This document shows, in pieces, positions 6,401-55,745 of a stretch of 64,000 nt of DNA (positions are counted from its first letter, which is position 1; each line of letters begins with the position of its first letter). The position numbers and the translations under genes were made by a program. The notes under the pieces are model-generated. The model saw only the letters and a list, made by a program, of their open reading frames with translations. It made no database searches and was not told the origin of the DNA. The DNA comes from an uncultured virus (IMG/VR IMGVR_UViG_3300013823_000004) (lineage: Duplodnaviria > Heunggongvirae > Uroviricota > Caudoviricetes), in IMG/VR virus record IMGVR_UViG_3300013823_000004; one strand, 5' to 3'.

Positions 6401-8643
6401 GCGGTGTCAGCGGCGGCCTTCACGCCCCCGCCAGCGGGCACTGCAGGGCTATCGGGCGGAACTGCAGCTCCATCCAAGACCTCCACTGACCTGTCCGAAG
6501 ATTCCCTCGTTGCCGGCACCACCGGCGTTGCACCTGCCGGCGCTTCAGCCGCCTGCACACCAGGGGTCGCTCCGGCATTGGCCGCGGGCGCGGCATCAAG
6601 AGCATCCCGGTGCGCGGCTGCCCCTACAGGTTGGTCCCCCATCTCCATCGCGGAAGGCGTGGGCGGTGCCCGCCGGCTTGCCAACGCTTCGATGCTCGCG
6701 CGCCGCGCTGCGGCGTTCTGGCGCACCTGATCGAGCAGGCGCTCGTCGGCGGAAGGTTCAGACGCGGCGGCGGCGGGCAGCAGGCTGCCCTGGGGCTGCT
6801 CTGCCGGCGCCTGCGGCGCGGCGATGCCTCGCTTCCGTTCGGCCTTCACCTTCGAGAGAACCGGACCGACGACGGCGCGCCCCAACCCATACTGGTCACG
6901 CATCGTGTTGAGTGCGACCTCGCTGCTGATGCCGCCGCCGTTCTGCATCTGGTAGTCGAGGTTGGCGTGCAGCAGCTGCTCGATGTCCGCGGTGGTCGGC
7001 GCGCGCAGCGCCTCTCCGGTCTCGGCATCGACCCACGGCGGCGGGATGGTCGGTGCGGCCGGCGGCGACTGTGCCGGGACCTGTTCGGCGGCGGCCGGCT
7101 CCGGGGCGCTGCGGCGCGCGGCGGCTGTGACGTTGGCGACGTCGGCGATGCTGCCAGGCGCGGCATCCGGGAACGGTACTGCGGGCGCTGCAGCGCGCGG
7201 CGCCTGCTGGTTCAGACTGTCGTCGGCGACACGCACGCCCGGCACCGAAGCAGGGTTCGGCGCCGGCGCGGCCGGTTCGCCGGTGACACGCGGGTCCAGG
7301 CCTCGCTGTTCCGGCGTCAGCACCGTGCCACCGGGCGTGACCACGTTGACGCCATAGGCCGGCGTGCCGTCGGAAGGTGGCAGCGCCAGCTGCTCCGGCG
7401 GCAGTTCGGGAGGCTGCGCCGGCTGGTCCTGGCCGGGCTCCGCGGCGGCACCGCGCCGCTCGCTGGCCAGCGCGCCGCCGGTGGCCAAGCCGCCGCCCAG
7501 GACCGCGCCCAGCGCGGCGCCGGTACCGGCAGCCTCGGGCACGCCCTCCCACACTCCCTGATTGGGATCGATCTGCCGCTGGGCCACGTTGCCGGCGAAC
7601 TGAGAGCCACCCTCCTGGATCGTCTCTTCGACCGTCTCCCTGGCCGCGCCTTGCAGCATCGCCATCGGCCTGCGCGCCAGCCTGCCGGTGAACACGTCGG
7701 CCTCGAAAGGTGCGGCGAAGCGCCCGGCGACTGCAGCAATGGGGGCCGTGATGACCTGGGCCTGCAGCGAGGCGCCGCGCGCGATCGTCTCCTTCGCCGT
7801 GACCGGATCCGCGCCGGCGGCGACCATCCGCCGGTACTCGAGGTTCGCATCCCACACCGACTGCGGCTGGGCCATGGCCTGCTGGTAGGTCTGCTGCCCT
7901 GCCTGGCCGGCCTCCATCACCGTGGTCATGCCAGTGGCCGCGGTGGTGGCTGCCTTCTTACCGGCCGCGGCCGCTGCCGTCTCGGCGGCCTCCATGCCGA
8001 GCCCCTTGGTCAGCGCGCCGGCAAGGGCACGCTCGCCCGCCCTCGCCGCGGCCACCCGCGTGCCCATACCCATGGTCGCGATGTTCGGCACCTGCTCGGC
8101 CACGAAGTTGCCGAGCAGCCGCGGGGACGTGAGTACCTTCTTCGCGCTGCCGATGAAGCCCTTGGTCTCCGCCAGTTCCTGCTTCTCCTGCTGCAGGGCC
8201 TCCGACTGCGCGCCGCCGATCGCGTCGCTCACCATCTGCACGCCCTTCGACGTTGCGGCGCTGCCGGCCCCAGGCGCCATGCCGAACTGGCGCTCGGTCA
8301 GCGTGCCGGGCATCTTGGCGGCCAGCGAGCCGGCGCCCGGGACACCAGCCCGGTCGAGCAAGCGCAGGCCCTGCCTGGCGAGGTTCGCGGGCTTGGTCGC
8401 CTCCCGCGTCTCGACCAGGCCTCCCACCAGGTTGGCGGCGCCGGCGGCGACGCCGAGGGCGGTGTCCCCCAGCGCCTGGCCCCAGCTCCGCTCGGGACGC
8501 TTTGCAATCCGTTCACCCGCCGGCGCTGCCGGCGAAGGTTTCGCGGCGAATCGCGACCATGGCCCTGCTCCATTCCCCGCTTCCGACCCAGTCGCGGGGG
8601 TTGCGCCGGGCGAGCTCCCGAAGTTCTTCCACGGCTCGCTCAT
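454..8643 (-). CDS. Giant multidomain (polyvalent) internal virion/ejection protein, PLxRFG-type
   Basis: 2729 aa; pyrophosphatase-like motif (GNYPKGH..HYGYI..DHVDVF..DEHKV), ART-like motif (FRRWF..VVFHGT..GHDGI..PEQIKSA), HEALGH metallopeptidase motif, MuF-C/BECR-like segment (LGRTP..NRVASAYGK), YFPLQRFG. Confidence 0.88.
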   Translation of the reverse strand: MSEPWKNFGSSPGATPATGSEAGNGAGPWSRFAAKPSPAAPAGERIAKRPERSWGQALGDTALGVAAGAANLVGGLVETREATKPANLARQGLRLLDRAGVPGAGSLAAKMPGTLTERQFGMAPGAGSAATSKGVQMVSDAIGGAQSEALQQEKQELAETKGFIGSAKKVLTSPRLLGNFVAEQVPNIATMGMGTRVAAARAGERALAGALTKGLGMEAAETAAAAAGKKAATTAATGMTTVMEAGQAGQQTYQQAMAQPQSVWDANLEYRRMVAAGADPVTAKETIARGASLQAQVITAPIAAVAGRFAAPFEADVFTGRLARRPMAMLQGAARETVEETIQEGGSQFAGNVAQRQIDPNQGVWEGVPEAAGTGAALGAVLGGGLATGGALASERRGAAAEPGQDQPAQPPELPPEQLALPPSDGTPAYGVNVVTPGGTVLTPEQRGLDPRVTGEPAAPAPNPASVPGVRVADDSLNQQAPRAAAPAVPFPDAAPGSIADVANVTAAARRSAPEPAAAEQVPAQSPPAAPTIPPPWVDAETGEALRAPTTADIEQLLHANLDYQMQNGGGISSEVALNTMRDQYGLGRAVVGPVLSKVKAERKRGIAAPQAPAEQPQGSLLPAAAASEPSADERLLDQVRQNAAARRASIEALASRRAPPTPSAMEMGDQPVGAAAHRDALDAAPAANAGATPGVQAAEAPAGATPVVPATRESSDRSVEVLDGAAVPPDSPAVPAGGGVKAAADTAATSPTNDLPEPTDAQKEAGNYPKGHVRLNGHDISIENPAGSKRRPEWPALKNHYGYIKGTVGKDKDHVDVFMTDRAEDTSLPVFVIDQVNKDGSFDEHKVVLGTADEAEARKTYLANYEKGWTGLGGIKEMTQDEFKAWVRDPKKTTRRVTRAPRAAPPATAQSPAAEGAQPSPRTAPDARAVPADARPAAPQYTPRVRRIGGSPEYDRSDVGTLGAYFQPGRIVKAYGNGLDRVLAFEPADPDGRWRVQVQAVDASGNPMPEERPRWHSTLPSPRELAAVLGKPQLKSRKAAAPRKATKEAAPAATAKSDPPRLVEEAPNGIKIGDRVSVNMDRNAGTPRSTAPYEATVVAIEANAAPAYQGTAFKVAQDDAKPDGRGTGWVGINRVTLVAPAPANVASAEPPAGRQGKGGPARTEPPPSAALFSLPPDPVGSPEFRRWFADSQVIGRGGKPEVVFHGTAEDFWTFSKHRSGQATGHATAPLGHFFTTDRALAQRYAENASDGVPADERVVDAYLRIQNPYEMSLEEAQSLDSPDASEAFRRYLQRQGHDGIHIAEAKTWIAFQPEQIKSASENWGAFDLTNPDIRFSRSGDGAAGGMDFDRALQLKAELTAKWGDNAPSVVVVRSAEDFPASAKVDPSYRRAEGFFNGSPTVWINAGAISSEARFGQVLAHEALGHFGVESVVGAEDWAQIVGAIDKLASEGGGSAALQSVLEDVSRRYGTVDRETFAKEAIAVMAERGIRNSFTSRMVAAVRRFLRRVMPSLQWSEADIRDLLSQADSFLRSGRPAAERQAAVRAYAFSRANAPASLQPDPAEAAAYREAFDKIVPSLRTVVPPIRLGRTPAVLRALGAPDLPITITRDVVRKASNGIKHNVSLEALRRMPEELADPLAVFNSKTEPGSLVVVTELTDQAGKPVIVALRMRQVEARLEVNRVASAYGKDGAQPFAGWSGELAYESERAARSPLLESIIGARSPSENEKPRPGTTGPALHARSGSPSQGSPAPKVLAERDVVQQAGEGPVDPDRRLFSLPSADALADIDTIQKGLQGEGVLARARQMLADMVPRKLKDQWRPTWLGALATRHLTELGGDYFKNIDHYSHFLAEMQADRNQLQAEAEAIAEPARKWASKNKAEAERLFDLMHDATIDGVDPSKAYQPLMFKMPGQKGEFEVTKANIDHAIKVKQQQMKERSGDSKANMINEIKALTAMGMAEPRRRRQYAPLVERWNQLSPEAQAIYTQFRDAYRQRSDAVEEALAQRIEDLAADGVSDQQRKKMVTMLRQQFESARMQGVYFPLQRFGSFFVAAEKDDTNTFMMFKTVNELDRAVDSLRAKGWTVTASGKKGDKVSAKDAPSGTFVADVIQQLRDSHVSDKVQDEIYQLYLEAMPELSMRKHSIHRKSVPGFDPDAVRAFAYNMHHGSHQLARLRYSHKLQEVLNLLTKQQDAARKEPDANVRRITAGDTILEELKRRHDWIMNPTDSALTNLVSSFGFTYYLGATPAAALVNLTQTALVSYPFLAARHGGVKSMNYLLAASRDAVRTMGNIQRTLTDPEEQRAYQALQAAGAIEKTQAHNLAGIAEGGMAGYNPAWAKAMEIIGWGFHKTEVVNREATGMAAFRLARDGGAAFDEAVKFARDAIFDTHFDYSNANRARYMQSGTAKVLLMFRQYSLNMSWALGRMVWQATKGQDPEVRKIARRNLAGVLGMSTLFSGALGLPMMGVVMGVLNAVQATFGDDDEPWDAETEFRAFLGDMLGPSAAEVLLRGPANKLTGANIAGRVGLDSLWIRDADRELDGRGMFNNLLEQAAGPMGGVLKNVLVGKQQIDEGHLLRGVETMLPKGMKDVLKAARYATQGVNTLRGDPVVEDVSLWQALLQGAGFAPAEVAERYERNRALKNYEEHITRRRETLMNAFALAVRNGDQPTREAVMEKIRAFNRANPEVAISASSIRASMKSRAGYSAKAEGGIVLNPKLSARLQAAVGPE
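3356..3384 (+). promoter_or_regulatory. Candidate antisense sigma70 promoter inside the giant gene
   Basis: TGGACA (3356-3361), 17-nt spacer, TACCTT (3379-3384). Confidence 0.5.
3391..3467 (+). ncRNA. Candidate antisense structured small RNA
   Basis: 18-bp stem 3392-3409/3445-3462 whose 4 non-Watson-Crick positions are all G.U on this strand; inner hairpin with 7-nt loop AUGUAGA; U-rich end. Confidence 0.45.
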
Positions 8644-15520: not shown

Positions 15521-17407
15521 TCATGCAGGTCGCTCCATGGGTTGCTCGGGGTGGGGCTTTCCGAGCATCGAGAAGTACGGCACCTCGAACGCATCGCCAG
15601 TGAGGTCGTCGAAGTCGCCTTTCGTGATGTACGTGTTGTCTGTGAAGTCGCTGTCTTCCCGGTGCGCAGCCACGCACTGGTCAGACCCAACGGCGGTTGC
15701 ATAGAGCAAAACCCCGTAGCCCTCCGGGTCATACACCGGCGCCAGGGTCGGAAGACCGGTATCGAGGGCCTGGCCGAAGTAGACGGTGTTGGACCAGCGC
15801 CGGGGTTGCCCGGGTATGTCGGGCTCACCGCCCACGCTCAGGCCACCCGCCGCATGGCCACGGATGCCGTACTTGATCTGCGCGGCATTGAGCAGGCCCA
15901 CGCGCATCGCGCCCTCGGTCAGTCGGCCGGGCGTCTTGTGGAACAACCAGCCGCACAGCGCATGGCATCCCTTGGAAATACCGGAGCCGCCGGCGGCCAG
16001 GTCCGTCAGGTACTTCGACAGGAGGTAGTACCCCGAACAGGGGCTGGTCGTGCCAGGCTCGGTCGTTGAAAACTCGGTCGCCTCGCCGGCTTCCAGCGCC
16101 GTCAACCACGCACGGTGCGCGCCTGTGAACGGGACGGCGCCCGTCGTCCTCGTCTCTTGGCGGATGTTGCTCAGCACGTAGCGATCGTCGACGGGGTTCG
16201 CGTACAACAGGCCGGTGAACTGGACCTCGGTCTCGGACAACCGCACTGCTGGAATGCGCCGCAGCGGGGTCACGAAGTCCAGGCCGGTCGCACCCGCGGC
16301 TACCAGGCGCACCTGGGCACCACCTTCCTCATACACAATGTCCCCGGCCGGTTCCGTGCGCAGCCCATCAGCGCCGAGCCGGAATATCACTTCATCGGCG
16401 CTCAGTGGGTCAGCCAGCTCTGCGTACCGGTACAGCAGCACCGGCTGCCGCGGCAGCTGCACGCTGACGAACTCCCCCGTCCTTCCATCGAAGGTCCAGC
16501 GGTTGTACGCGCGAACCAGGGATGCGCTCCATAGCACTTCCCCGGAGTCGTAGTCGACCTCGTAGTGGTAGTGCCAGCTGGCCGGATCGACCTTCGTCTT
16601 GAGCTTGTAGCGCAGCAGTGCCGTCGGATTGGCGGTTTCGCTGTACAGGCTCGATGCCCAAGCATCGGCTTCTTGCTCGGGTATGTTCGGCCGCAGCGGG
16701 TAGTCCAGCTCGGCCAGGTCCGCGAGCAGTACAAGCAGATCGCCGTCGTGAACTGCCGCAGCCAGCACGCGGTTGTAGCCAACTGCGAGGTTGCCGGCGT
16801 CGATGATGTCGAACAGCGGCATGCCGAGGCAGAACACCGCCGCGCTGTAGACCCTCGCTGGGTTGCGTGCGGGCGGACCCATGCAGATCGCGGCGGACCA
16901 CCAGGACGTGACCAGTCCGTCCTTGTTGCGGTTGAAGCAGTTTCCGCCGTACAGCCGCTTGTCGTTGTCCATGACCTGGGGGAACACGTCGCTGTACGTG
17001 CCCGCGCCTGAACCGTAGCCCGGCGCGTCGGTTGACGCGAAGTAGGCGCGCCAGCGCATTTCGTCGTCGTGGCTCAGGATCACCGGGGGCCGCACCCTGT
17101 TCCCGCCGCCATCACGCTCTGCCGCCCCTGCCAGCGCAAGAACGTCGTCGAACACCCGGACCGGTCGCGTCCGTCCGCCGGGCGGCGGCGGCGCGATCGT
17201 CACCCGGTTGATCTCGCCGATCTTCTCGGCCACGAGCACGGTTCCATCGCGCAGATGGCGGACAAGCTTGTGCGTGCCGAGATCGTTGACCGATGCTTGC
17301 TCCAGCACCATACCCATCAGCGTTCGGGCGGCAGGGAGGTACGCTGGCGCCGCGTCTCGGTCTCCCTCGACGCGGACCACCAGCTCGCGGACGTACCGCT
17401 CCGCCAT
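15521..17407 (-). CDS. Tail/receptor-binding region protein
   Basis: 628 aa in late operon. Confidence 0.7.
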   Translation of the reverse strand: MAERYVRELVVRVEGDRDAAPAYLPAARTLMGMVLEQASVNDLGTHKLVRHLRDGTVLVAEKIGEINRVTIAPPPPGGRTRPVRVFDDVLALAGAAERDGGGNRVRPPVILSHDDEMRWRAYFASTDAPGYGSGAGTYSDVFPQVMDNDKRLYGGNCFNRNKDGLVTSWWSAAICMGPPARNPARVYSAAVFCLGMPLFDIIDAGNLAVGYNRVLAAAVHDGDLLVLLADLAELDYPLRPNIPEQEADAWASSLYSETANPTALLRYKLKTKVDPASWHYHYEVDYDSGEVLWSASLVRAYNRWTFDGRTGEFVSVQLPRQPVLLYRYAELADPLSADEVIFRLGADGLRTEPAGDIVYEEGGAQVRLVAAGATGLDFVTPLRRIPAVRLSETEVQFTGLLYANPVDDRYVLSNIRQETRTTGAVPFTGAHRAWLTALEAGEATEFSTTEPGTTSPCSGYYLLSKYLTDLAAGGSGISKGCHALCGWLFHKTPGRLTEGAMRVGLLNAAQIKYGIRGHAAGGLSVGGEPDIPGQPRRWSNTVYFGQALDTGLPTLAPVYDPEGYGVLLYATAVGSDQCVAAHREDSDFTDNTYITKGDFDDLTGDAFEVPYFSMLGKPHPEQPMERPA

Positions 17408-20776: not shown

Positions 20777-21220
20777 TCAGACCGGGAACGTCGCCAGGCG
20801 CAGGATCAGCTCGCCCTGGGCCGCGGCAGGTGCCGTGTTGAGTTTCACGAACACCGGCCGGTTGAACGGCTTGGCCCCCAGGGCTTCGGCGGTCAGGTGG
20901 TCGGTGATCGGCACGAATGCCGCCGTGTCCGCCGTCACCGCGGTCGCGCCGAGGATGGTGTTGTCCGCCGTCACCGCACCTTCGAGGGCGTCGGGGATGT
21001 AGACCGTCACGTTCTGGGCCGCCAGCTTGCCGCCAACGGCCTTGGCGAACAGACCACTGCCCTGGCTGGACAGCTTGTGGAAGGCCGGCAGTTCGCCGAC
21101 CAGGACCAGGTCGTTGTTCGCCGCGGCCTCCACCGGCCAGCTGAAGTCGTTGACCACCAGCAGGCCGGCCGCCGGCGCCGAAGCGCCGGCGTTCCGGCCA
21201 ATCGCGAGTTTCGTTGCCAT
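20777..21220 (-). CDS. Probable capsid decoration/cement protein
   Basis: 147 aa immediately downstream of capsid gene; AAGGAG RBS. Confidence 0.6.
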   Translation of the reverse strand: MATKLAIGRNAGASAPAAGLLVVNDFSWPVEAAANNDLVLVGELPAFHKLSSQGSGLFAKAVGGKLAAQNVTVYIPDALEGAVTADNTILGATAVTADTAAFVPITDHLTAEALGAKPFNRPVFVKLNTAPAAAQGELILRLATFPV

Positions 21221-21303
21221 GTTGCTTCTCCTTCGGAGTTCGGTGCATTTCGAACCGAGCGCCACCCATCCTTGGGCAGCACGCGGGAGGGGTCAGACCA
21301 GGG

Positions 21304-22413
21304 TCAGACCGGGTTCGGATTGGCGGCGGCGGTATCGAGCGCGATCGTGCCGAAGTCCTTGCCGTTGAAGCGGGTCTTCTTGATGCCGAAGATCGCGCCG
21401 GCGCAGATCTCGATGTCGTTACCGTGGTCGAGCGGAACCTCCGACCAATCGAAGCGCAGGCCGTTGCCCGGGGAACCGAATGCCAGCACCATCGCCTGCC
21501 GGCCGAGGAACAGCGCGCGCGCCGAGGCCACGTTGTTGCCCGCGCCGTAGTCGTTGAAGCGCACCACGGACTTGTGCTTGTGCAGGATCGTGTTGCCGAT
21601 CATGCCCAGGTTGTCCTTGAAGATCGGGTTGCTGGCACCCTCGGCAGCAGCCGCCGCCTTCTGGATGTCCAGCCAGTTGCCCGCGTCCGTGGAGGTCTTC
21701 AGGTCGTGCGCCTGGAACGGGTGCATGACGACGACGAAGTGCTCACCGCCAGCGATGGTGATCGGCTGGATCTCCGCCACCTGCGTGCTGCCGCCACCCT
21801 GCGACGCGGCCTTGGTGTTCGCACGCTCGATGAGCACGCGGCTCATCTTGCCGGCACTGGTCAGCGAGGCCTTGCTGCTGCCATCGCCGAACAGGATGTG
21901 GTCGCTGTCCGGCGACTCGAAGCTGTTGCCGGCGCGGCCCGCGTAGTTCAGCGGGACGTTGTAGTCCTCGTTGATCCCGCGCGCACCGGAGCCGTACATG
22001 AAGAACAGCTCGTCGTAGAAGCGCGCCCAGAACTCGGTCAGGCGGTTGCGGCCGACCTTACGCAGGTCATGCACCGTGCGCTTGCGGCTCATCCGGCCAC
22101 CGCAGCTGACCGGCTTACGAGCCTGGTCGATGAACACCTTGTCGGTGAAGAAGTCGAGCTTCTCGCCCTTGCCCTCGGCTTTCTGGTCGCCTTCGATGAC
22201 GCCACCGGACAGCTGGACCGAGAGGTCGTAGCTGATGGTGTCGCCGGCCTCCTGCTCGAGGTCGGTCTGCAGCATGACCGGCAAGGTCGTTTCGGACCCC
22301 TTGCCCATCATCTTGCGGGTCCAGTAGGACTTCTTCGAAACGGAAACCATCAGGTCCGCGGACCAGAGCTTCCGGGCTTTCGGGTCGTTCAGACCCACGA
22401 TCGTCTGTGCCAT
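21304..22413 (-). CDS. Major capsid protein, N4-gp56/DUF4043-like
   Basis: 369 aa; DLEQEAGDTISYDL, IDQARKPV..GGRMSRKRT.HDLR, DFGTIALDTA; follows portal and scaffold. Confidence 0.9.
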   Translation of the reverse strand: MAQTIVGLNDPKARKLWSADLMVSVSKKSYWTRKMMGKGSETTLPVMLQTDLEQEAGDTISYDLSVQLSGGVIEGDQKAEGKGEKLDFFTDKVFIDQARKPVSCGGRMSRKRTVHDLRKVGRNRLTEFWARFYDELFFMYGSGARGINEDYNVPLNYAGRAGNSFESPDSDHILFGDGSSKASLTSAGKMSRVLIERANTKAASQGGGSTQVAEIQPITIAGGEHFVVVMHPFQAHDLKTSTDAGNWLDIQKAAAAAEGASNPIFKDNLGMIGNTILHKHKSVVRFNDYGAGNNVASARALFLGRQAMVLAFGSPGNGLRFDWSEVPLDHGNDIEICAGAIFGIKKTRFNGKDFGTIALDTAAANPNPV

Positions 22414-22488
22414 GTTGTCTCTCCTTGGAGATCACGGCACTTCTGCGCCTCGTTCGTTGACCCGCACTGCTGCGCAGGTTTCGTGAAA

Positions 22489-22704
22489 TCAGGACCCGGC
22501 GACGACCGGGCGGCGGGCAACCCGCTGCGCGGGCCCCGCCGTATGCTGCTGTTCGCCAGCTCGGGTGATCGTCACCGGGCTGTTGGATTCGATGACCACC
22601 CGGGAGCGCTTGCCGCTCTTCTCGGTGAAGGTGATCGACGCGCCGGAGCTGGCCGGGATCAGCACCACGTCGCCAGGCTCCAGCGTTGTATGCAGCTTCG
22701 GCAT
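22489..22704 (-). CDS. Small protein with CsrA-like beta-strand pattern
   Basis: 71 aa MPKLHTTLEPGDVVLIP..ITFTEKSGKRSRVVIESNSPVTITR; aligns by eye with CsrA. Confidence 0.6.
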   Translation of the reverse strand: MPKLHTTLEPGDVVLIPASSGASITFTEKSGKRSRVVIESNSPVTITRAGEQQHTAGPAQRVARRPVVAGS

Positions 22705-22711
22705 GTGACCC

Positions 22712-23758
22712 TCAGTCGGTGAAGGCGCCAGGCACGTCGCGCAGGAGACGGTCGCGCTCCGATTCGGACTTGCCAGCCAGCAGCGCCTCGAGATCCTCGA
22801 TCCCCTGCTCCGCTGCCGCGTCGGCGGCCGCACGCGATGTGGGGTCGGCCGCGGCCGGGACTGCACTGAGGGTCACCGGCACCTGCGCGAGCGGCGGCGT
22901 GCGGTCGGGCTTCGGCGGCGGCGGAGCGGCGGGCTGCGGCGGTGCGGCCGCGGGACCCGGTGTGCCAAGCATGCCGGCGGCAACCAGTTGCTCGCGCGCG
23001 CCCACCAGCAGGTCCCAGTCCGTCAGCTGGCGGCCTTCTTGCGCCGCCAGGTTGGCGACGACCTGCATGCCCTGCTCCCAGGCAGCGAACAGCAGCGGGT
23101 TGTTGGCGATCGCGGCGTTGGCCGGGTCGGACAGGAACTGGCGCTGCAGGTACGCCCATGCCTGGTCGGCGTTCTGCTGGCTCAGGTCGGCCTGCAGCTG
23201 CGCACGGTCCTGCGCACGCTCAACCGCGGCGCGCTGGTCGCGCAGCGCCTCATATTGCGTCTCGTAGGCCTCATCGTCGACCTGGCCGCCCTTGTACTGC
23301 GCCTTGAGGTCGGCCAGCTGCTGGTTGATCCCGGAGATCTCCGTGGCGAAGTCGCGCTCACTGTCAGCGGCGTACGTCGGCACGAAATGCGCCGGCGCGG
23401 CGAAGGAAGCCGCGGCCGGCGCGGCCGGCACGGCTGGCGCGGCCGGTGCAGCTGCTGCCGCCGCTACTTCCGCTGCAGCGGCTGCTGCACCGTCACCCGT
23501 CCCGGCGTTGACGGCTGCAGCACCGGCGGCTTCGGCATCGCCCGCCGCCGCAGGCGCATTTGCAGCGCCGCCACTCGGGGTGCCTTCCTGCCCCGCCGCC
23601 GCGCCGCTCTCGGCCGGCGCAGCAGCCGCGGGCGGCGCTGCCGCCGCACCGCCTGCCGCCGGCGCGGCGTCCTGGGCCTGTGCGAGCGCCTCACGCTCGG
23701 CATCGGTGATCTCGAACTCGTTGGCGGCCAGGGCCGTGCTTTCGTCAGGCTGCGACAT
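22712..23758 (-). CDS. Probable scaffolding protein
   Basis: 348 aa, acidic Ala-rich, between portal and capsid. Confidence 0.7.
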   Translation of the reverse strand: MSQPDESTALAANEFEITDAEREALAQAQDAAPAAGGAAAAPPAAAAPAESGAAAGQEGTPSGGAANAPAAAGDAEAAGAAAVNAGTGDGAAAAAAEVAAAAAAPAAPAVPAAPAAASFAAPAHFVPTYAADSERDFATEISGINQQLADLKAQYKGGQVDDEAYETQYEALRDQRAAVERAQDRAQLQADLSQQNADQAWAYLQRQFLSDPANAAIANNPLLFAAWEQGMQVVANLAAQEGRQLTDWDLLVGAREQLVAAGMLGTPGPAAAPPQPAAPPPPKPDRTPPLAQVPVTLSAVPAAADPTSRAAADAAAEQGIEDLEALLAGKSESERDRLLRDVPGAFTD

Positions 23759-25916
23759 TCGCGGTTTCCTCAGGTGGATGTGCGGTGCTCAGCAGCCTGT
23801 CGGCGGCCGGAGCGAGGGGGAGCAGGAGCTCGATGAGCTCGGCTACGTTCAGGGCATCGCCCTTGGTCTTGATCTGCAGCGCCTTGGCCTTGGCCATGAT
23901 CTCTTCGCGCTTGGCCTCGTCCAGGCCGACCTTCGCCATGCGTTCACGCAGGGCCACGTCGCGGTCTTGCTGTTCGGCGTCTCGCCTCGCGACGGCTTCT
24001 GGGCTGTTCGGGTCGCTCTCGTTGTCGGACTGGCCAGTGATCTGGCGGATCCGCTTCACGACCTCGTCCTTGCCAGGCATGTCGATCATGTCGAAGGCCA
24101 GGTCAAGCAGCTGAACCGACATATCCGGCGGCAGCTTGCCCAGCATCTCGAAGAACTGCTCGGCGAAGGCCTGGCGCATGGTCTCGCGGAAGTCCTGTTG
24201 GTCGACGACGAAGTCGGCCTGGTTGCGGCTGATGTCGTTGTCCACCACCCACACGTTGTTCAGGGTGTCCAAGCGGATCTGGTTGATGACGCGCCAGTCC
24301 ACCCCCTTCTTCTCGCCGACGATGCGGAACTGCCGTTCCTCGGTCATGAACTGCTCGGTCAGCGAGAGCTGCTTCTCTCCGCTCAGCTGGATGCCCAGGC
24401 GGTAGTTGTCGAATAGCTCGGCCGTCGATACCGCGCCCTCCTGCTGCTTGGCCAGGATGGCGCGTCCGCTGGCGGCATTGGTCTCGCGCCCCAGCATCTC
24501 GCGGTTCACGCCCGTCCCGTCGTGGATGTGGGCCGCATCGATCTCCAGAAGCTGGATCTGCGCCTCGGCAACGTCGAGGTTGCGTTCGACCCTGATCCGC
24601 GCCAAACCGCCGTTCTTCAGCGGGATGACGCCATTAGGCTTGGCGATCTCCCGCTTGATCTCTTCGAGCCGGTCCTCGTCGATAGCACCTTCCTCGAAGA
24701 ACAGCTGGTTGGTGCTCAGCGCCCAGAGCAGCTTGCTCATGCGCTTGTTCAGGTCCTCCTGCGAGTCACGAACACCGCGCACCAGGCCGTACTCCATGCC
24801 GTCGCGGTTGCGGCGATAGCACCAGTACGGGGTGTAGGGGAAGCCGTTGTGGGCGAACGGGCTGCGCTTCAGCGACAGCAAGCCCTCCTCGGTGAACACC
24901 GCACACCACATTTCCTCGACCACCGCGTCGGTGAGGGTGTAGATCGGGCTGGCGCCGGCCGCCATCTCCTGCTGTGCCGCCGCATGCGCGGCGTTGCCCG
25001 GGTCGAAGCGCTCGCCTTTGAAATCACCGCCCCAGATGCGCTTGTGGGCTACCGGCTTCCGGAACCAGCATTCCAGCAGCCGCACCCGCATCCGGCAGCG
25101 GCTATCTAGGGAAACCCGCCCGGTGATCCGGCGGCCGGTCAGTTCGTGGCCGCGGCTGTCGTAGCGGCGGAACACCTGTGGCAGGTCAAGCTCTTCTTCC
25201 CAGGTGCCGTCGTCACCGTCGAAGTGATCGCGCGCCGCGCGGTTCACGATCTCGATGCGGTCCGGGAACATCGCCTCCGAATAGTCGAGATCTGCGAACT
25301 TCTCACGGATCAGGAACCGGCAGTCCGAAAGATCGAGCTCCCGCGAGACGGGATCTCGGCGCATCTGGCGCCACGGCACGTGCTTGACCATGACCGGCTC
25401 GCCCGCCTGGTTGGTCCGGATGTTCTCCTCCGTCCAGCCACAGCCGGCAATGGCCGCATCCTTGAACGCCTGCGACCTTGCCCACGGCACCCTGTTGGTG
25501 TCGCTCAGGTACTTCAGCAGTTCGCCCTTCACCGTCGCGAGCTCGACATCGTCCTGCGCGCGGGGGTGGACAACGCCGTCGATCCTGGTCCGGCGCTCGG
25601 TGCCGATGACCCAGTCCAGAGCCATCTTGATCTTGTTGTAGGTCAGCGGCGCCTGGTGGCGCGCGGCCAGGACCGCCCGGTCGGCATCCGACCACTGGAT
25701 GTGGTCGTAGAAATCGTAGTCGAGCATCTGCTCGATGCGATTGTCGAAATGCGCGTCGAGGGCCGAGTAGTAGTAGTCGAGGACCTTGGCGTGGATCCTG
25801 TGCGCCTCGGGGCTGTCCAGCGGATGGATGGGAGCCTCCGGCGCGGCGCTGATGGCGAGTTCTGCGCCGCCTGGCAGGTGCCCGCGGTCGCCCCGTAGGT
25901 TCTCGATCGTGTGCAT
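23745..25916 (-). CDS. Portal protein (podoviral type)
   Basis: 723 aa; DFYD..QW, N.IK..LDWVIG.E, G.VR.VRD.Q..LNKR.S, SG.AI..KQ. Confidence 0.88.
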   Translation of the reverse strand: MHTIENLRGDRGHLPGGAELAISAAPEAPIHPLDSPEAHRIHAKVLDYYYSALDAHFDNRIEQMLDYDFYDHIQWSDADRAVLAARHQAPLTYNKIKMALDWVIGTERRTRIDGVVHPRAQDDVELATVKGELLKYLSDTNRVPWARSQAFKDAAIAGCGWTEENIRTNQAGEPVMVKHVPWRQMRRDPVSRELDLSDCRFLIREKFADLDYSEAMFPDRIEIVNRAARDHFDGDDGTWEEELDLPQVFRRYDSRGHELTGRRITGRVSLDSRCRMRVRLLECWFRKPVAHKRIWGGDFKGERFDPGNAAHAAAQQEMAAGASPIYTLTDAVVEEMWCAVFTEEGLLSLKRSPFAHNGFPYTPYWCYRRNRDGMEYGLVRGVRDSQEDLNKRMSKLLWALSTNQLFFEEGAIDEDRLEEIKREIAKPNGVIPLKNGGLARIRVERNLDVAEAQIQLLEIDAAHIHDGTGVNREMLGRETNAASGRAILAKQQEGAVSTAELFDNYRLGIQLSGEKQLSLTEQFMTEERQFRIVGEKKGVDWRVINQIRLDTLNNVWVVDNDISRNQADFVVDQQDFRETMRQAFAEQFFEMLGKLPPDMSVQLLDLAFDMIDMPGKDEVVKRIRQITGQSDNESDPNSPEAVARRDAEQQDRDVALRERMAKVGLDEAKREEIMAKAKALQIKTKGDALNVAELIELLLPLAPAADRLLSTAHPPEETANVAA

Positions 25917-26383
25917 CAGTTCACCGCCTGCCCGTTGATCTTGACCGTGAGCCCCATTGCGCCCATCTCCCGCAGCCATTCCTCGCGGCTCTTCTCCGCC
26001 GGCGGCCGGAGGTTCTTCACGTCGTCGCAGAACTCCAGGATCGCGTCGTGGATGCGGTGCCGGTAGGGCGCCGCGTCGATGCCATACAGCGCAACCGAGG
26101 CATTCGCCAGGCGACTGGTCATGTCCTCGATGCGGTGCATGCCACCGCGGTCGCGGTCCTCCGGCCGGAACACCCAGAAGTCGCGGAACGGCACCAGGTA
26201 TGCAGGGCATCCGGTCGCGGCCTTGCCGGTGATCGCGTCGCTGGATTCGACACGGCGGTTCTCGTTGCGGATGTACAGCGCCGCATCGTCGTCGCCGTCA
26301 CGGCTGATGTGCGTCAGGTAGAGCGTCAGGTCGCCCTTCTTCCCACACCAGACGAAGCCCTCGGGCGCGAGCTGCAGGCTCAT
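25916..26383 (-). CDS. Hypothetical protein
   Basis: 155 aa, coupled. Confidence 0.7.
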   Translation of the reverse strand: MSLQLAPEGFVWCGKKGDLTLYLTHISRDGDDDAALYIRNENRRVESSDAITGKAATGCPAYLVPFRDFWVFRPEDRDRGGMHRIEDMTSRLANASVALYGIDAAPYRHRIHDAILEFCDDVKNLRPPAEKSREEWLREMGAMGLTVKINGQAVN

Positions 26384-26559: not shown

Positions 26560-26837
26560 CAGTTCAGCTCCCGCGCCAGCTCGCCATTGATCCGCTGGGT
26601 GATCAGTGGGTGGCTGATGCGGACCTCCTGCGCGATGCGCTCCCGCACGGTGCGGGCGGCCATCTCCGTGAACTCGTGGCAGCCGCGATAGTCGACCATG
26701 GCATTGCCCTCCCTGTCCTGGAGCATGAAGACCAGGCTCACCAGCTGGCCTTCCTCGGCAGCCGCAAGCAGCATGGCCAGGAGCTCCTCGAGCGCCGCCT
26801 TTGTGGGGTGATTTCGTTCACGTGCTGAGACGCTCAT
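26559..26837 (-). CDS. Small hypothetical protein
   Basis: 92 aa, ATGA overlap with terL stop. Confidence 0.6.
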   Translation of the reverse strand: MSVSARERNHPTKAALEELLAMLLAAAEEGQLVSLVFMLQDREGNAMVDYRGCHEFTEMAARTVRERIAQEVRISHPLITQRINGELARELN

Positions 26838-28387
26838 GCGGTTCTCCAGTTGTCTTCGGCCAGCGCGCGGCTCTCGCCGACACGGCGGCCGCTGCTGCTG
26901 ACGTATCCCTGGGCGGCCGTGCGGAACGCATCGGCCGGATTCGATGCCCAGTTGTGATATGGCATGTCCGAGAATGTCTCGGTCTTCTCGTTCCACTGCT
27001 TGCTGTAGCGCCGGAGCGCTTCAAGTCCACCGCGGCCCTGCCCGGCCTTCGGCGGCCCGCAGCGCGTCTTGTCGAAGCGGCAGCGCGGCAGCATGTTGCG
27101 AACCATGTCGATGCCTTCGGTGACGTCTTCGATTCGCGGCACAACGATGATCGGCTTCACGCCCAGTTTGCTGGCGACCTGGACTCGGTTCTCGGATGCA
27201 GACCAGTCTTCATTCGCGCCGTCATGGGGCCAGTGGTGCTTTCCGTACAGGTAGCCCCGCTCCTTCAGCACCTTCGCGTAGTGCGTGACGCCGAAGCCGG
27301 AGGCCTCGTAGAAGTCCACGAAGTCCAGCCAAGGCCCGTTCTCCTGCATGAACCAGATGGCCGTGGTGTCCGAACGGCCGATGTCCCAGAACGTGTGGAT
27401 CGGCACGGCCGGGTTGATCGGTAGGTCCGTGATCCGGCCTTCGTTCGAGGCCGCGGCCATCTCCTTGCCGTAGTAGGCACCCTCGGTCGACGCCTCGAAG
27501 GCCTCGGCCGGTGTAGACGGGTGCTCGCGCTTCATTTTGTCGCGCTGGTCGCCCGCCTTCTTGACGTACCAGGCCTTCTGCCGCGCAGAGAGCTTGTACT
27601 CCATCTCCGCCTCGACCTTGGCGAAGTACGTCTCGTCATCCGGGCCGATCGGGACGCCTTCCGGGTCGAGCTCGTTGATCGGGTCGCGGAACCACGGGTA
27701 GAAGTGGAACCGGTAGTCCATCGAGGTCAGCACGCCGGTGCCGGCCTTCACCTGCCTGACCAGCTCCATGGCCGTCTGGCAGCGTTCGTAGAAGTCGCCG
27801 GCCGCGCCGTACGCCGTAGATTCGATCACCACGATGTTGCCCGGCGCGATGGCGTTCAGTGCGCCGGAGGCGACTTCCTGCGCCCGCTCCGGGTACATGG
27901 CGCACATGGGTCCATACTCGGAGATATGCAGGAACGTCAGCGTGCCGCCGCGATGCGAGACGCTGACCTCGATCGAGGATCCGTTCGCGAGCTCGAGCAC
28001 GCCGTCGCGCATATCCCGCCGGACCGCCGGTCGGATGGCTTTCAACCAGTCCGGCAAGTTGTCATAGGCGTACAGCACCTTCTTGCGGAAGAACTTGGCC
28101 GCGTCGCCGGCGGTGTGCGCCACGATGCCCGCCTGGGTGTTCTTCTTGAACAGCGCCATGTCCAGCGCGCGGATGCACGCCCAGGTCGTTATCCCGTGTT
28201 GGCGCGACTTCAGCGCCAGGTTGAGGGTGTGCAGGTTGTCGTCGAGGTCGGCCTGCACCTCGTTCGGCTTGAACAGCACCTTCCGACCGTACTTGTCGGT
28301 GATGTAGTACAGGTTGTTCAGCCGCCACCATCGGTCCGACAGCTTGTCCAGGAGCCGGCTGGCGTCCTGGTCGCTCAGCTGTGACAC
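26834..28387 (-). CDS. terL: Terminase large subunit
   Basis: Walker A-like LKSRQHGITT, Walker B LHISE, IESTA, nuclease WDIG..D, SNPADAFR. Confidence 0.93.
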   Translation of the reverse strand: MSQLSDQDASRLLDKLSDRWWRLNNLYYITDKYGRKVLFKPNEVQADLDDNLHTLNLALKSRQHGITTWACIRALDMALFKKNTQAGIVAHTAGDAAKFFRKKVLYAYDNLPDWLKAIRPAVRRDMRDGVLELANGSSIEVSVSHRGGTLTFLHISEYGPMCAMYPERAQEVASGALNAIAPGNIVVIESTAYGAAGDFYERCQTAMELVRQVKAGTGVLTSMDYRFHFYPWFRDPINELDPEGVPIGPDDETYFAKVEAEMEYKLSARQKAWYVKKAGDQRDKMKREHPSTPAEAFEASTEGAYYGKEMAAASNEGRITDLPINPAVPIHTFWDIGRSDTTAIWFMQENGPWLDFVDFYEASGFGVTHYAKVLKERGYLYGKHHWPHDGANEDWSASENRVQVASKLGVKPIIVVPRIEDVTEGIDMVRNMLPRCRFDKTRCGPPKAGQGRGGLEALRRYSKQWNEKTETFSDMPYHNWASNPADAFRTAAQGYVSSSGRRVGESRALAEDNWRTA

Positions 28388-28390
28388 CGA

Positions 28391-28993
28391 TCAGCCTCCC
28401 CTCGATGACGCCGGGCCGGTCCCGGTATCGGATCCGTCCGCGAGTTCAAGCAGTTCCGCCAGCTGCTGCTCCATCTTGATCGGCCCGCCGCCTGGTCCGC
28501 TGTGCTCCACCTTCTTCGAGAACATCCCGAAGTGCTGGCCGAGCGTCTTCACCGCGTCCAGCCGGCTGACGAACTTGATCTTCTTCGTGAGCCCTACGAA
28601 CTGTCGGTCCTCGCCGCGGCCCTCGAACTCTTCGAAAACCTCGACGCCCTGCAGGAGGCTCGCCTCCTCGGCGGTCAGATCGCTCATCGGCTTCAGGTTG
28701 CCGTTGGTGTCGAACAGCGCGCGGATGTCTCCCAGCGCCATGTAGGCCAGGCGCTCCAGCACCGCTTCCTGGTCGACACGCTTTGCCGCGACCAGTTCCT
28801 CGCGACGTCGCTGCAGGTAGGCCTGCACCTTTGGGTTGGCCAGGAGCCTGGCGGCCGCCGCATGGGCCGCGGCGCCCTTGGCCTTGTAGCCGGCGCGCAC
28901 GTACGCCGCACTGGCGTTGAAATCGATCAGGTATTCGTCGGCGAACCGGCGCTGCTGGTCAAGCAGCCCGGTTTCAGGGTCGATCTTCGACAT
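28391..28993 (-). CDS. terS: Terminase small subunit
   Basis: QRRFADEYLIDFNASAAYVRAGY..RLL.NPKVQ, LGQHFGMF..KVEHSG. Confidence 0.92.
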   Translation of the reverse strand: MSKIDPETGLLDQQRRFADEYLIDFNASAAYVRAGYKAKGAAAHAAAARLLANPKVQAYLQRRREELVAAKRVDQEAVLERLAYMALGDIRALFDTNGNLKPMSDLTAEEASLLQGVEVFEEFEGRGEDRQFVGLTKKIKFVSRLDAVKTLGQHFGMFSKKVEHSGPGGGPIKMEQQLAELLELADGSDTGTGPASSRGG

Positions 28994-29008: not shown

Positions 29009-29524
29009 CTACGGCCAGCCGGCCTCCACGTCATACTCGGCAGCGCCCGCTAGCGAAGTGAGCGCGTCGATCGCTTCGTGATGTGCACGCTCTGCGCTGA
29101 AGCACGCTTGCACATGGGTGGTGATGGCATCGGCGATGCCTTGCAGCTCGGCCAGGGTGAGCGTCACCCACCCGCTTTCGGCCTTGAAATCGAGTGTCGC
29201 CGGGGCGCCGATCAGCGCGGTGGCGATGCGGTTCTGATCCTCTACCCCGGTCAGCACCCGAACGCCGGCCACGGTGATCCCGCCGGTCTCGTGCTCCCAG
29301 CGCAGCGCTGTGGCGCGCTCGCGCAGCCGCTGCTTGGTCTCGGCCAGGTCTTCCGTGGCTGGCGCTGCCGGCGGCACCAGATCGCCAGCGACGAGCAGCC
29401 AGCCAGGGCCAGCGGCGCCAGCATCCATCGCGGCGTCGCAGCCCGGCAGCGTTGAGGCGAACGCCAGGTCCGCCTCGATGACGTTTGCGACCACGCCGGC
29501 CCGGATCAGTGCGATGCGGCTCAC
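29009..29524 (-). CDS. Tail fibre assembly protein, DUF4376-like
   Basis: ETGGI..DQNRI..DFKAESGWV..HVQACFSAE..GWP. Confidence 0.8.
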   Translation of the reverse strand: MSRIALIRAGVVANVIEADLAFASTLPGCDAAMDAGAAGPGWLLVAGDLVPPAAPATEDLAETKQRLRERATALRWEHETGGITVAGVRVLTGVEDQNRIATALIGAPATLDFKAESGWVTLTLAELQGIADAITTHVQACFSAERAHHEAIDALTSLAGAAEYDVEAGWP

Positions 29525-32558: not shown

Positions 32559-33428
32559 TCAGCTCCGCGCCGGCCAGTGCCAGCGGCCAGGCTCCATGCG
32601 GCCAGGCGCCGCCTGGGCACGCGTCGTGGCCCAGTACACGTCGTTGCCGTCCAGGAACACCTGCAGGTTGACCTGCTCGTTCGGCAGCACCTTCACCACC
32701 ATGGCCGGCAGGATGTCGCCGGCGCACGCCTTGTTCCCGATGTGCGCCTGCGCACCGCACGGCCACTTGTCCTCGAGAATCCTGTCCTGGATCGATGCGC
32801 CGTCGGTACGGCGGCCGTTGATCTTCAGCGCATCCTGCTCGCTCAGCACGTAGTAGACGATGCGCCCGAGCGCCGCTGCTGGCCGCTGCGAGTCGACGAG
32901 CAGCACGCCGGTCACGCCTGGCGGGATGGGAATGATCGAGTCCGGTCGCTCGACGCTGGCTGCCGCCTCGCTACGCCTCGCCTGCTCGGCATGGTCGTAG
33001 CTCGGTGCGGCGGCCTGCGGGTCGCCAGCGACCAGGCCGAAGTCTGGCCGCGGCGTGCCGGCCAGGTCCGCGGCGGCGTCGGCCTCGGTCAGCGACGGCC
33101 TGGACAGCTCATCGCGCACCATCTGATCGCGCAGCCGGAAGCCCAGCGGGTTCCACAGCTTGGCGATGGCGTCCTCGCGCGCGTACTTCCTGCCAATCTC
33201 GGCATCGAAGTTGGCCGGATCGACCGGGCCGTGGTTGATGCCGACCGCCTTGTGGCCGTTGTGCAGGGTCAGGACACAGATGGTCAGGCAAGTGAGCGAG
33301 CGAATCGTCACTTCGTTTGCAATGCCCACCTGCATACCGGCGGCAGCGGCGGCACGGCCGTTGAAGTAGTGCTCGACCGCGATCTCGGCCTCGATGTCGG
33401 CCAGCGTCAGCTTCGAAGGGCCGGTCAC
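32559..33428 (-). CDS. Gp49/Sf6-gp66-like domain fused to a second domain
   Basis: LTICVLTL.NG..G....VDPANFDAEIGRKYAREDA..KLW..LGFRL; C-terminal GRIVYY..PAMVV..VNLQVFLDG..W.WP. Confidence 0.75.
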   Translation of the reverse strand: MTGPSKLTLADIEAEIAVEHYFNGRAAAAAGMQVGIANEVTIRSLTCLTICVLTLHNGHKAVGINHGPVDPANFDAEIGRKYAREDAIAKLWNPLGFRLRDQMVRDELSRPSLTEADAAADLAGTPRPDFGLVAGDPQAAAPSYDHAEQARRSEAAASVERPDSIIPIPPGVTGVLLVDSQRPAAALGRIVYYVLSEQDALKINGRRTDGASIQDRILEDKWPCGAQAHIGNKACAGDILPAMVVKVLPNEQVNLQVFLDGNDVYWATTRAQAAPGRMEPGRWHWPARS

Positions 33429-33592
33429 GACAGCACCGCCCTGATTGCCAGAGCGAATGCGGCCGCGCTGAGCGCGACGAACATGAGTGCCTTCGCCAAC
33501 GTGGCAAAGGTATGGGCCTTGGTCTGCTGAACCTGCACCTCCGCATGCTGGATCTGCACTTCCGCGAAGCGAATTTCTTGGTCGTGATTCAT
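33425..33592 (-). CDS. Small membrane protein
   Basis: 55 aa with C-terminal hydrophobic helix, coupled on both sides. Confidence 0.55.
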   Translation of the reverse strand: MNHDQEIRFAEVQIQHAEVQVQQTKAHTFATLAKALMFVALSAAAFALAIRAVLS

Positions 33593-48089: not shown

Positions 48090-48263
48090 ATGCTCGTTCT
48101 GTCCCGCCGCGTAGGCGAATCCCTCTGCATCGGCAACGACGTCAAGGTCGTTGTTCTGGAAGTGAAAGGCTGCCAGGTCCGCATCGGCGTCGCCGCCCCG
48201 AAGGAAACCTCCGTCGACCGCCAGGAGCTGCGCGAGCGCAAGGAGGCCGGCCATGGCAAGTGA
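48090..48263 (+). CDS. csrA: Phage-encoded CsrA/RsmA homologue
   Basis: [59 protein letters not shown]. Confidence 0.92.
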
Positions 48264-55478: not shown

Positions 55479-55745
55479 ATGACCGAGATCCGAGACCATG
55501 CGGCCCCCTCGATCCGAGGCCTGCTGAGGCCGCCGCGGTTCGTCACCATCGAGAAATTCGAGGAACTGACCGGCTACACCCCCGACGCCACCCGTTCGAA
55601 GATCAAACGAGGGGATTGGCTGGAAGGTGTGCTCTACATAAAGGCCCCTGACGGCCGGATACTGATGGACATCGAGGGATACGAATGGTGGGTACTAAAC
55701 GGGGCGGCGGGGTCCGCCCAGCTACAGAAAGCAGCATCGAGGTAG
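55479..55745 (+). CDS. xis: Excisionase
   Basis: FVTIEKF.ELTGYT.DA.R.KIKRG.W.EG..Y.KAPDGRIL.D.EGY..WV; overlaps int. Confidence 0.85.
   Translation: MTEIRDHAAPSIRGLLRPPRFVTIEKFEELTGYTPDATRSKIKRGDWLEGVLYIKAPDGRILMDIEGYEWWVLNGAAGSAQLQKAASR

Follow-up and report, generated by a model that had tools for sequence, protein, structure and literature searches.

In the 64,000-nt stretch of DNA catalogued as IMG/VR record IMGVR_UViG_3300013823_000004, from an uncultured tailed phage (Caudoviricetes), the gene for the major capsid protein is directly preceded on the minus strand by an open reading frame (ORF) encoding 71 amino acids and a 75-nt spacer that ends at the capsid ATG (22413). This whole stretch is referred to below as the window. 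A preliminary description, prepared from the letters of the window alone, had read the ORF as a divergent relative of CsrA and the spacer as an RNA leader with two near-identical hairpins, through which the ORF product would set the output of capsid protein. The ORF, the spacer, both hairpins with their G.U pair and the Shine-Dalgarno sequence (SD) within UCUC-CAAGGA-GAGA are all present where they had been placed. The features at the center of the locus are the following.

22489..22704, minus strand, stop codon included: gene for the divergent CsrA-like regulator, 71 aa (ATG at 22704, stop codon at 22491-22489)
22461..22478, minus strand: hairpin 1, CCUGCGC-AGCA-GUGCGGG, a clade-specific second copy of the leader element, starting 10 nt past the ORF stop
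22436..22449, minus strand: hairpin 2, GGCGC-AGAA-GUGCC, the orthologue of a conserved capsid-leader element, GCGC-N4-6-GUGC
22433..22440, minus strand: 5' strand of an alternative helix, GUGCCGUG, overlapping the 3' arm of hairpin 2 (this arm plus three bases)
22418..22431, minus strand: SD hairpin, UCUC-CAAGGA-GAGA, holding the capsid SD, with GGA in its loop
22407..22414, minus strand: 3' strand of the alternative helix, CAUGGCAC, covering the base before the AUG, the capsid AUG, codon 2 and the first base of codon 3
21304..22413, minus strand: major capsid protein gene of the N4-gp56 / Phage_capsid_3 type, the presumed regulated gene (PF13252, 8e-60; phrog_334, 9e-111)
22712..23758, minus strand: scaffold-like gene directly upstream of the ORF, its synteny partner (phrog_8246, 1.1e-26)

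The ORF, whose protein sequence begins MPKLHTTLEPGD, has an SD of its own (GAGGG at 22713-22709), which shares bases with the stop codon of the scaffold-like gene. Judged from sequence and predicted folding, the 75-nt leader has a pair of conserved look-alike hairpins able to switch with a fold that hides the capsid AUG, and the capsid is probably controlled at the level of RNA.

Conserved hairpins and predicted alternative folds of the capsid leader

Hairpins 1 and 2 share the core GCGC-AGNA-GUGC. The 12-mer common to both, GCGCAGNAGTGC, is present as three exact copies in the window, where 0.18 would be expected; none of 100 shuffles reached three. The third copy, GCGCAGCAGTGC (16610-16621, plus strand), was rejected as a chance occurrence, as it lies antisense within a gene for a 628-aa protein (15521-17407) and forms no hairpin on the mRNA strand. 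A 91-nt segment comprising the leader folds with -32.7 kcal/mol (z -2.9), a stability equalled by one of 200 shuffles. An Rfam search of positions 21000-24000 at a permissive threshold returned seven weak matches, none of which falls within the leader.

Related loci were collected by protein similarity alone and comprise 31 IMG/VR loci and five genome contigs (from a Thermomonas metagenome-assembled genome, Stenotrophomonas and Lysobacteraceae). Gene order is identical in all 36, and each keeps both hairpins, so that the co-conservation of ORF and hairpins, which the preliminary description had named as a check, is borne out. Within the first 50 codons of the ORF, third-codon-position identity to six relatives is 0.46-0.68; because the hairpins are kept in every clade locus despite this divergence, they are under selection. 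The 14 nt of hairpin 2 are invariant across the 36 loci. Variation in hairpin 1 is confined to its loop (AGCA, AGUA or AAAA) and to one-sided changes in the outer stem; in 10 clade leaders that were aligned, it consists of eight pairs, and the G.U pair is kept in 10 of 10. Across the clade, the two hairpin cores begin 27-29 nt apart (27 nt in the window).

The same RNA is predicted to adopt a second fold. An 8-bp helix between GUGCCGUG and CAUGGCAC buries the capsid start codon and excludes hairpin 2. In the isolated leader, this helix has a pair probability of 0.999 and hairpin 2 one of 0.001. The minimum-free-energy structure is the closed fold, at -34.5 kcal/mol, and the fold with both hairpins lies 5.2 kcal/mol higher, at -29.3 kcal/mol; this is a gap that protein binding could bridge. 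For the 10 clade leaders, RNAalifold predicts hairpin 1, the AUG helix and the SD hairpin. The SD hairpin (pair probability 0.83) shows compensatory changes in three of its five pairs, and the AUG helix has one compensatory change (last pair G-C to U-A in locus L030) and one broken terminal pair (locus L035). Hairpin 1 has no complementary partner downstream and so stands outside the switch helix, yet it retains its stem, its G.U pair and the first and last A of its loop. The persistence of these features without a pairing partner therefore points to recognition of the hairpin itself.

Relationship of the ORF product to CsrA

Among PHROGs families, the ORF product matches one alone, the 'CsrA-like regulator' family phrog_8397, with its residues 3-56 covering positions 2-52 of the 64-position profile (E 1.2e-5, 26.2 bits). 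Queries made with this one sequence were otherwise uninformative: the best Pfam match of any kind had an E-value of 0.047, tblastn against 50,697 phage records gave zero matches, and phmmer against the Protein Data Bank (PDB) gave noise only. Through a word-index search, 21 homologues were found, none informatively named, and 19 of them were aligned into a clade profile (A1). When run against 1.84 billion representatives, this profile found 19 proteins at E up to 1e-3. Among 13 small distant relatives from the search, 12 match phrog_8397, and seven match the Pfam CsrA family PF02599 below threshold, the best (P0038) at 25.1 bits with a cut-off of 27; in 69 phage records from Pseudomonas, Ralstonia and Burkholderia, one distant relative has matches to genes bearing the name 'CsrA-like regulator' or 'carbon storage regulator'.

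Further profiles were then compared: A7, built from seven annotated phage CsrA-like regulators; A6, the joint family profile; and A9, a profile without the annotated members. In hhalign, A1 and A7 align with 95.5% probability (E 1.4e-8, 48 columns). Against solved structures, A6 finds RsmE (2jpp) at 2.4e-8 and E. coli/Yersinia CsrA at about 1e-5 (1.5e-5 for 2bti), and A9 still puts RsmE first, weakly (E 0.014). The nearest cluster in the ESM Atlas is a viral 'carbon storage regulator family protein' (score 0.90). A short cupin-like match, PGDVVLIPAG, obtained with A1 against the PDB, was regarded as spurious.

The AlphaFold2 (AF2) model of the protein has a mean predicted local distance difference test (pLDDT) score of 80.3, with five beta strands at residues 3-8, 12-15, 23-30, 33-39 and 45-48 (pLDDT 88-92) and a disordered tail at residues 51-71 (pLDDT 44-64). 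In each of the three structure libraries that were searched, the CsrA family comes out on top. The top PDB match in Foldseek is RsmF/RsmN (E 0.018, prob 1.0, TM ~0.5, a weak match), the top match in VIA-align is RsmN (Z 3.7, within noise), and the top match in BFVD is a phage CsrA (E 0.21). A homodimer prediction with two copies of A1 scored 0.23 against a mark of 0.42, with no folded controls beside it, and supports no inference.

Several of these results weigh against the reading as a CsrA-like regulator. The ORF product does not match PF02599 at E up to 1 (curated cut-off 27 bits); all structural matches score weakly (Z 3.7; E 0.018-0.2); the AF2 model lacks the C-terminal helix that CsrA has; and CsrA is not found when A1 alone is searched against the PDB, so that the link to solved CsrA and RsmE structures runs through intermediates. 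For the fold anticipated in the preliminary description, five strands are predicted and the CsrA family comes first, at weak scores and with no C-terminal helix in the model. On the combined evidence, the remote homology of the ORF to CsrA is convincing, each structural score being weak alone.

Residues that would contact RNA can be placed by comparison with RsmE, in which Thr5 contacts the closing C-G pair of the target hairpin, Gln29 and Arg31 the stem bases, and Arg44 the first A of the loop (Duss et al., 2014; PMC4005645). In the A9-RsmE alignment, R33, R35 and R48 of the ORF correspond to Gln29, Arg31 and Arg44. The terminal arginine of the CsrA pattern, as the preliminary description had named it, is R48. 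R35 is invariant in A1. A further point against the assignment is that the Arg44 equivalent varies within the clade (R, K, Q or S). On the RNA side, both leader hairpins retain the features that RsmE contacts, namely the closing C-G pair and the first loop A.

Two positions distinguish the clade. All 19 clade members have Glu or Asp at the strand-1 residue before the P/V-G turn (Glu in the ORF); in each of 35 other distinct lineages this residue is Lys or Arg, and CsrA and RsmE have a basic residue there as well. The turn between strands 3 and 4 reads KSGKRSRV, with one Arg more than the KSGxIARL of relatives. Residues 49-71 (22489-22560, minus strand) form a variable tail rich in Pro, Gln and Ala that ends in a conserved (I/V)ARRP motif, of which R65 and P66 are invariant in 19 sequences; this tail stands where other phage CsrA-like regulators have AQIAA...GL.

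Gene and leader in other phages, and the genomic setting

The order portal gene, scaffold-like gene, CsrA-like gene, gap of ~100-190 nt, and capsid gene recurs in eight named phages: Burkholderia phages DC1, Bcep22 and BcepIL02, Ralstonia phages GP4 and Claudette, Pseudomonas phages Skulduggery and Itty13, and Erwinia phage Pavtok. It spans at least five genera (Lessievirus, Gervaisevirus, Skulduggeryvirus, Ittyvirus and Pavtokvirus). Three of the eight have an additional hypothetical gene separating the scaffold-like gene from the CsrA-like one. The gap between the CsrA-like and capsid genes is itself interrupted in two Ralstonia phages, by an ORF or by a gene for an HNH endonuclease.

For comparison of the leaders, the gaps of the named phages were combined with those of 80 further IMG/VR loci, and 49 distinct leaders were examined. 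An element of the form GCGC-loop-GUGC lies 40-70 nt before the capsid AUG in 48 of the 49, and the sole exception is a locus with a mis-called capsid start. Hairpin 2 is the counterpart of this element, which the window thus shares with Burkholderia, Ralstonia, Pseudomonas and Erwinia phages. The twin hairpins of the preliminary description are accordingly both real and have a common core, and they are not equivalent: hairpin 2 is the ancient arm of the switch, and hairpin 1 is a copy specific to the clade. The alignment holds 41 of the 48 leaders, with seven left out as near-duplicates or for mis-set coordinates (L045, L080, L084, L085, L097, L109 and L141). Its inner pairs are C-G in 41 of 41, G.U in 41 of 41 and C-G in 37 of 41, and the outer pair is G-C in 35, G.U in four and A-U in two. 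The invariant G.U wobble pairs in the sense-strand RNA only. Most loops are AGGA(N), and the others are UGGA(U), AUGGAC, AAGA(C) and AUGA(C). The AGAA loop is confined to the window clade, the only clade without a G at loop position 3.

In the relatives, the loop and 3' arm of the element (e.g., GGAGUGC) can pair with the bases immediately preceding the AUG (GCACUCC), and the SD lies within this helix or beside it. Of 34 non-clade leaders, 31 have a duplex that stops no more than 2 nt from the AUG, and the duplex energy averages -13.8 kcal/mol for the leaders' own strands versus -9.6 kcal/mol for foreign combinations. At least five compensated variants of the helix were found: GGAGUGC/GCACUCC, GGAUGUGC/GCACAUCC, GGAAGUGC/GCACUUCC, AGAGUGC/GCACUCU and GCUGCC/GGUAGC. 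Unlike the hairpin stem, the SD/AUG helix of the relatives is therefore backed by covariation. In the window clade, the register of the helix is shifted onto the start codon.

The relatives also differ in transcription signals. Of 50 non-clade leader entries, 29 have a sigma-70-like promoter whose end lies 13-16 nt upstream of the element, versus none of 19 clade entries; in those relatives, the capsid mRNA is therefore a separate one, with the element at its 5' end. In the window clade, the capsid gene and the ORF presumably share one transcript, and hairpin 1 fills the space that the promoter has in relatives. This coincidence of place is what would suggest that the 12-mer repeats are DNA-level operator or promoter sites for a late DNA-binding regulator, or that hairpin 1 is a terminator or attenuator. 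Such a role is very improbable: the invariant G.U would be a mismatch in DNA and on the antisense strand, hairpin 1 is not followed by a U tract, a promoter/terminator scan found no promoter-like or terminator-like site in the window gap, and in the relatives the element follows the promoter and belongs to the transcript.

Co-occurrence of gene and leader was checked among phages with related capsid proteins, a small sample that does not amount to a statistical test. Pavtok has both, and VT2-Sakai and Vibrio phage D79 have neither the CsrA-like gene nor the leader. In Agrobacterium phage Atu_ph08 and Sinorhizobium phage PBC5, a promoter and a GCGC-AUGA-GUGC leader stand ~60 nt before the capsid AUG, with the loop paired to the start codon; a divergent endolysin gene precedes the capsid gene, and a weak CsrA-like match lies far off in the genome (E 4e-6 and 6e-5). 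Pseudomonas phage F116 has a CsrA-like gene and no capsid leader, with a gap of 12 nt before its capsid gene, and the target of its protein, if any, must be elsewhere. The F116 gene (33375-33527, E 4.8e-14 to the family profile) lies just downstream of the head genes, and a second, weaker match was seen at 16463-16582.

The F116 arrangement fits an explanation in which the leader switches independently of the protein, through ribosomes terminating at the ORF stop or through temperature, or serves mRNA stability or processing, while the protein acts on host mRNAs as a 'moron' or is associated with the virion. The csrA-like genes of phages JC1 and CSP3 are indeed called moron genes in the papers describing them (PMC9144972, PMC10269572), and one peptide of the JC1 homologue was detected in purified virions (PMC9144972). 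The ORF stop lies just 10 nt before hairpin 1, and the stem of the element is almost without covariation (two A-U cases in 41), so that its conservation could reflect sequence rather than structure. F116 and the uniform stem both weigh against the leader as an operator of the protein. A protein-independent switch is nonetheless unlikely. Gene and leader are adjacent or co-present in at least five genera and ~50 distinct leaders, and the two phages without the gene are also without the leader. Burkholderia hosts lack a chromosomal csrA, hence no host Csr regulon is expected there (PMC7366521). Finally, hairpin 1 copies the recognizable features of the element yet is outside the switch helix.

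The remaining genes of the window place the locus in its context.

23745-26210: P22-type portal gene (PF16510, 5e-157)
26834-28387: terminase large subunit gene
28391-28993: terminase small subunit gene
454-8643, minus strand: gene for a DarB-like giant virion-type protein of 2,729 aa (phrog_10089, 4e-229)
48090-48263, plus strand: canonical CsrA gene, 57 aa (phrog_9500, 7.5e-24; 100% tblastn match to the PF02599 hit, 73.8 bits, of the near-identical records G001 and G002)

The window also encodes virion proteins, and the remainder consists of replication, CII-like, recombination and integrase genes. Because these accompany late tailed-phage genes, the window is taken to be a temperate prophage with Bcep22-like gene content. 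The giant protein at 454-8643 has a lysozyme/endolysin-like segment at residues ~740-895 and a weak N-terminal match to virion RNA polymerase. Tandem integrase genes at 55685-56854 and 57421-58569 (plus strand) are followed by more tail and tail-fibre genes at 59937-63978 (minus strand), and a phrog_10508 tail-fibre gene is present twice (62237-62764 and 29009-29524); the window may cover the junction of two prophages or a rearranged element.

True RNA libraries yielded one contig of 179 nt (22571-22749) and one of 256 nt (23080-23335). Among the sequencing runs searched as contigs, no RNA contig spans the capsid leader, and these data carry no inference on transcription, RNA ends or co-transcription. 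Two runs labelled 'RNA-Seq' that cover this stretch are probably DNA. In run X9, two contigs end and begin no more than 5 nt apart within the leader (22430-22434); this is probably an assembly break at repeat or hairpin sequence and gives no evidence for an RNA end.

Proposed regulation and comparison with known systems

With slightly better than even confidence, the ORF is read here as a late CsrA-like regulator of a temperate Bcep22-like podophage, with the leader as its cis operator and a dimer of the protein holding that leader open. When the leader is closed, the capsid start codon would be paired with the 3' arm of hairpin 2, and the SD would be held in the small hairpin inside. When the leader is open, hairpins 1 and 2 would both be formed and the start codon accessible. 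The dimer would bind both look-alike hairpins and keep the leader open by anti-sequestration. Capsid protein would be translated efficiently only after the regulator had accumulated. The regulator would share its message with the portal and scaffold proteins. Binding of the protein to the hairpins, its dimeric state, its tolerance of or preference for non-GGA loops and the activation are all inferred. Activation is the favored direction because the most abundant virion protein has, in nearly all relatives, a leader that closes strongly on itself.

The opposite direction, classical repression, would have the dimer bridge an upstream hairpin and the GGA-bearing SD hairpin, or both upstream hairpins, and block the ribosome, thereby capping or delaying capsid output. 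Most known CsrA targets are repressed in such a fashion (PMC7492729), the capsid SD sits within a hairpin whose loop contains GGA, and many relatives carry GGA in the 5' element as well as in the SD. Repression is nevertheless improbable here. The SD/AUG region is self-closed without protein (a probability of 0.999 in the window and -12 to -22 kcal/mol in relatives), an odd state for the most abundant virion protein unless some factor opens the leader. Moreover, the SDs of Lessievirus (GAGG) lack GGA, and the 5' GGA of the relatives is base-paired in the closed fold and so unavailable for binding. Two features of the leader nonetheless detract from the activation proposed here: the SD hairpin exposes GGA in its loop in textbook form, which a CsrA-type protein could just as well use for repression, and hairpin 2 is, by prediction, nearly unpopulated without a factor.

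The preliminary description further suggested an altered loop specificity (AGNA). The loops of the conserved hairpins (AGAA in hairpin 2, and AGCA, AGUA or AAAA in hairpin 1) are without GGA, which occurs in the SD hairpin only. The prophage encodes a canonical CsrA in its early, lysogeny-side region, distinct from the host-type CsrA of related genomes (~93 bits); of 31 genomes related to the nearest genome, 29 carry a CsrA on the chromosome, the kinship being drawn from shared, possibly mobile DNA. An altered specificity is compatible with the absence of G at loop position 3, the replacement of Lys/Arg by Glu in strand 1 and the presence of the canonical CsrA in the prophage. A bolder version would be a re-specified, orthogonal CsrA-operator pair. 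The requirement for GGA would have been lost, a remodelled surface (the strand-1 Glu and the extra turn Arg) would read the G.U stem and an A-N-N-A tetraloop, and the dimer would activate the capsid gene while insulated from the canonical CsrAs of host and phage. This version is rather unlikely. Altered specificity rests on one evolutionary event in one lineage, and outside the clade the loop variation (AAGA, AUGA) follows the pairing partner in the start region, so that loop identity need not be read by a protein; both points tell against it.

Two broader rules were tried and rejected. No clean loop-to-residue rule emerged across lineages outside the window clade, as Lys at the Arg44 position also occurs with GGA loops. 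The idea that non-GGA loops track hosts with their own CsrA is countered by the UGGAU loop of Skulduggery, a Pseudomonas phage, and by the AUGA loops of Atu_ph08 and PBC5; S. meliloti, the host of PBC5, is reported to lack a chromosomal csrA (PMC7366521).

Phage csrA alleles have been catalogued (Sobrero and Valverde, 2020), and the word 'capsid' is absent from that paper (PMC7366521). Neither full-text literature searches nor passages of this catalogue and of the JC1 and CSP3 reports (PMC7366521, PMC9144972, PMC10269572) gave a published function for phage csrA-like genes, and full-text searches likewise returned no paper linking a CsrA-like gene to a capsid leader. What appears new here is a divergent clade of phage CsrA-like regulators with a candidate operator that is duplicated and non-GGA. 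The conserved pair of gene and leader supplies the phage csrA-like gene with a concrete, testable target, the capsid mRNA, and the logic is plausible, in that capsid protein would be made only after the portal-scaffold operon has been expressed. With its non-GGA loops, duplicated site and changed contact residues beside a canonical CsrA, the clade would be a natural specificity variant, and the contrast is useful for understanding how the CsrA fold reads RNA. If true, a late regulator freed from the need for GGA would be insulated from both canonical CsrAs, a prospect resting on one lineage, and the pair could furnish an orthogonal translational switch for synthetic biology.

Among known systems, the closest are the phage CsrA-like regulators of phrog_8397 (DC1 gp46, Bcep22 gp54, GP4 gp04, Skulduggery gp12 and Pavtok gp9). 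These are like the ORF in size, in their position between the scaffold and capsid genes, in the K-S-G motif and in strand pattern, and the ORF is 33% identical to the DC1 protein in the A6 alignment. Their leaders carry the same GCGC...GUGC element with its G.U pair, competing with a helix that sequesters the SD or AUG. Unlike these relatives, the ORF product has the strand-1 Glu, the KSGKRSRV turn and an insertion of two to three residues after strand 2, and in place of their AQIAA...GL tail it has a Pro/Gln-rich linker and a terminal ARRP motif. The window leader differs from theirs in having no internal promoter, two copies of the element, and AGAA/AGNA loops instead of AGGA.

The bacterial proteins CsrA, RsmA and RsmE (PF02599; 2jpp, 2mf0) and the rearranged RsmF/RsmN (4k59, 4kji) are likewise small, five-stranded, all-beta proteins. 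The ORF aligns with RsmE over strands 1-5, with the equivalents of Arg31 and Arg44 present. As in CsrA/RsmE targets, the candidate hairpins are short, close with a C-G pair, have loops starting with A and lie in a leader near the ribosome-binding site. In contrast to CsrA and RsmE, the ORF is without a PF02599 match and without a modelled C-terminal helix, has Glu for the basic residue of strand 1 and forms a dimer only putatively. The A(N)GGAX motif of Csr/Rsm targets is built around GGA (PMC4005645), which the loops of the candidate hairpins lack.

A precedent for the proposed direction of control is E. coli ymdA, which CsrA activates via two leader sites by unfolding a structure that sequesters the SD (Renda et al., 2020; PMC7492729). 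The capsid leader resembles it in having two sites, here candidates, and a sequestered ribosome-binding region to be opened. However, ymdA belongs to the host, its sites contain GGA and its mechanism has been demonstrated, whereas the present case is a sequence-based proposal for a neighboring phage gene pair in which the AUG is buried and the candidate sites are non-GGA.

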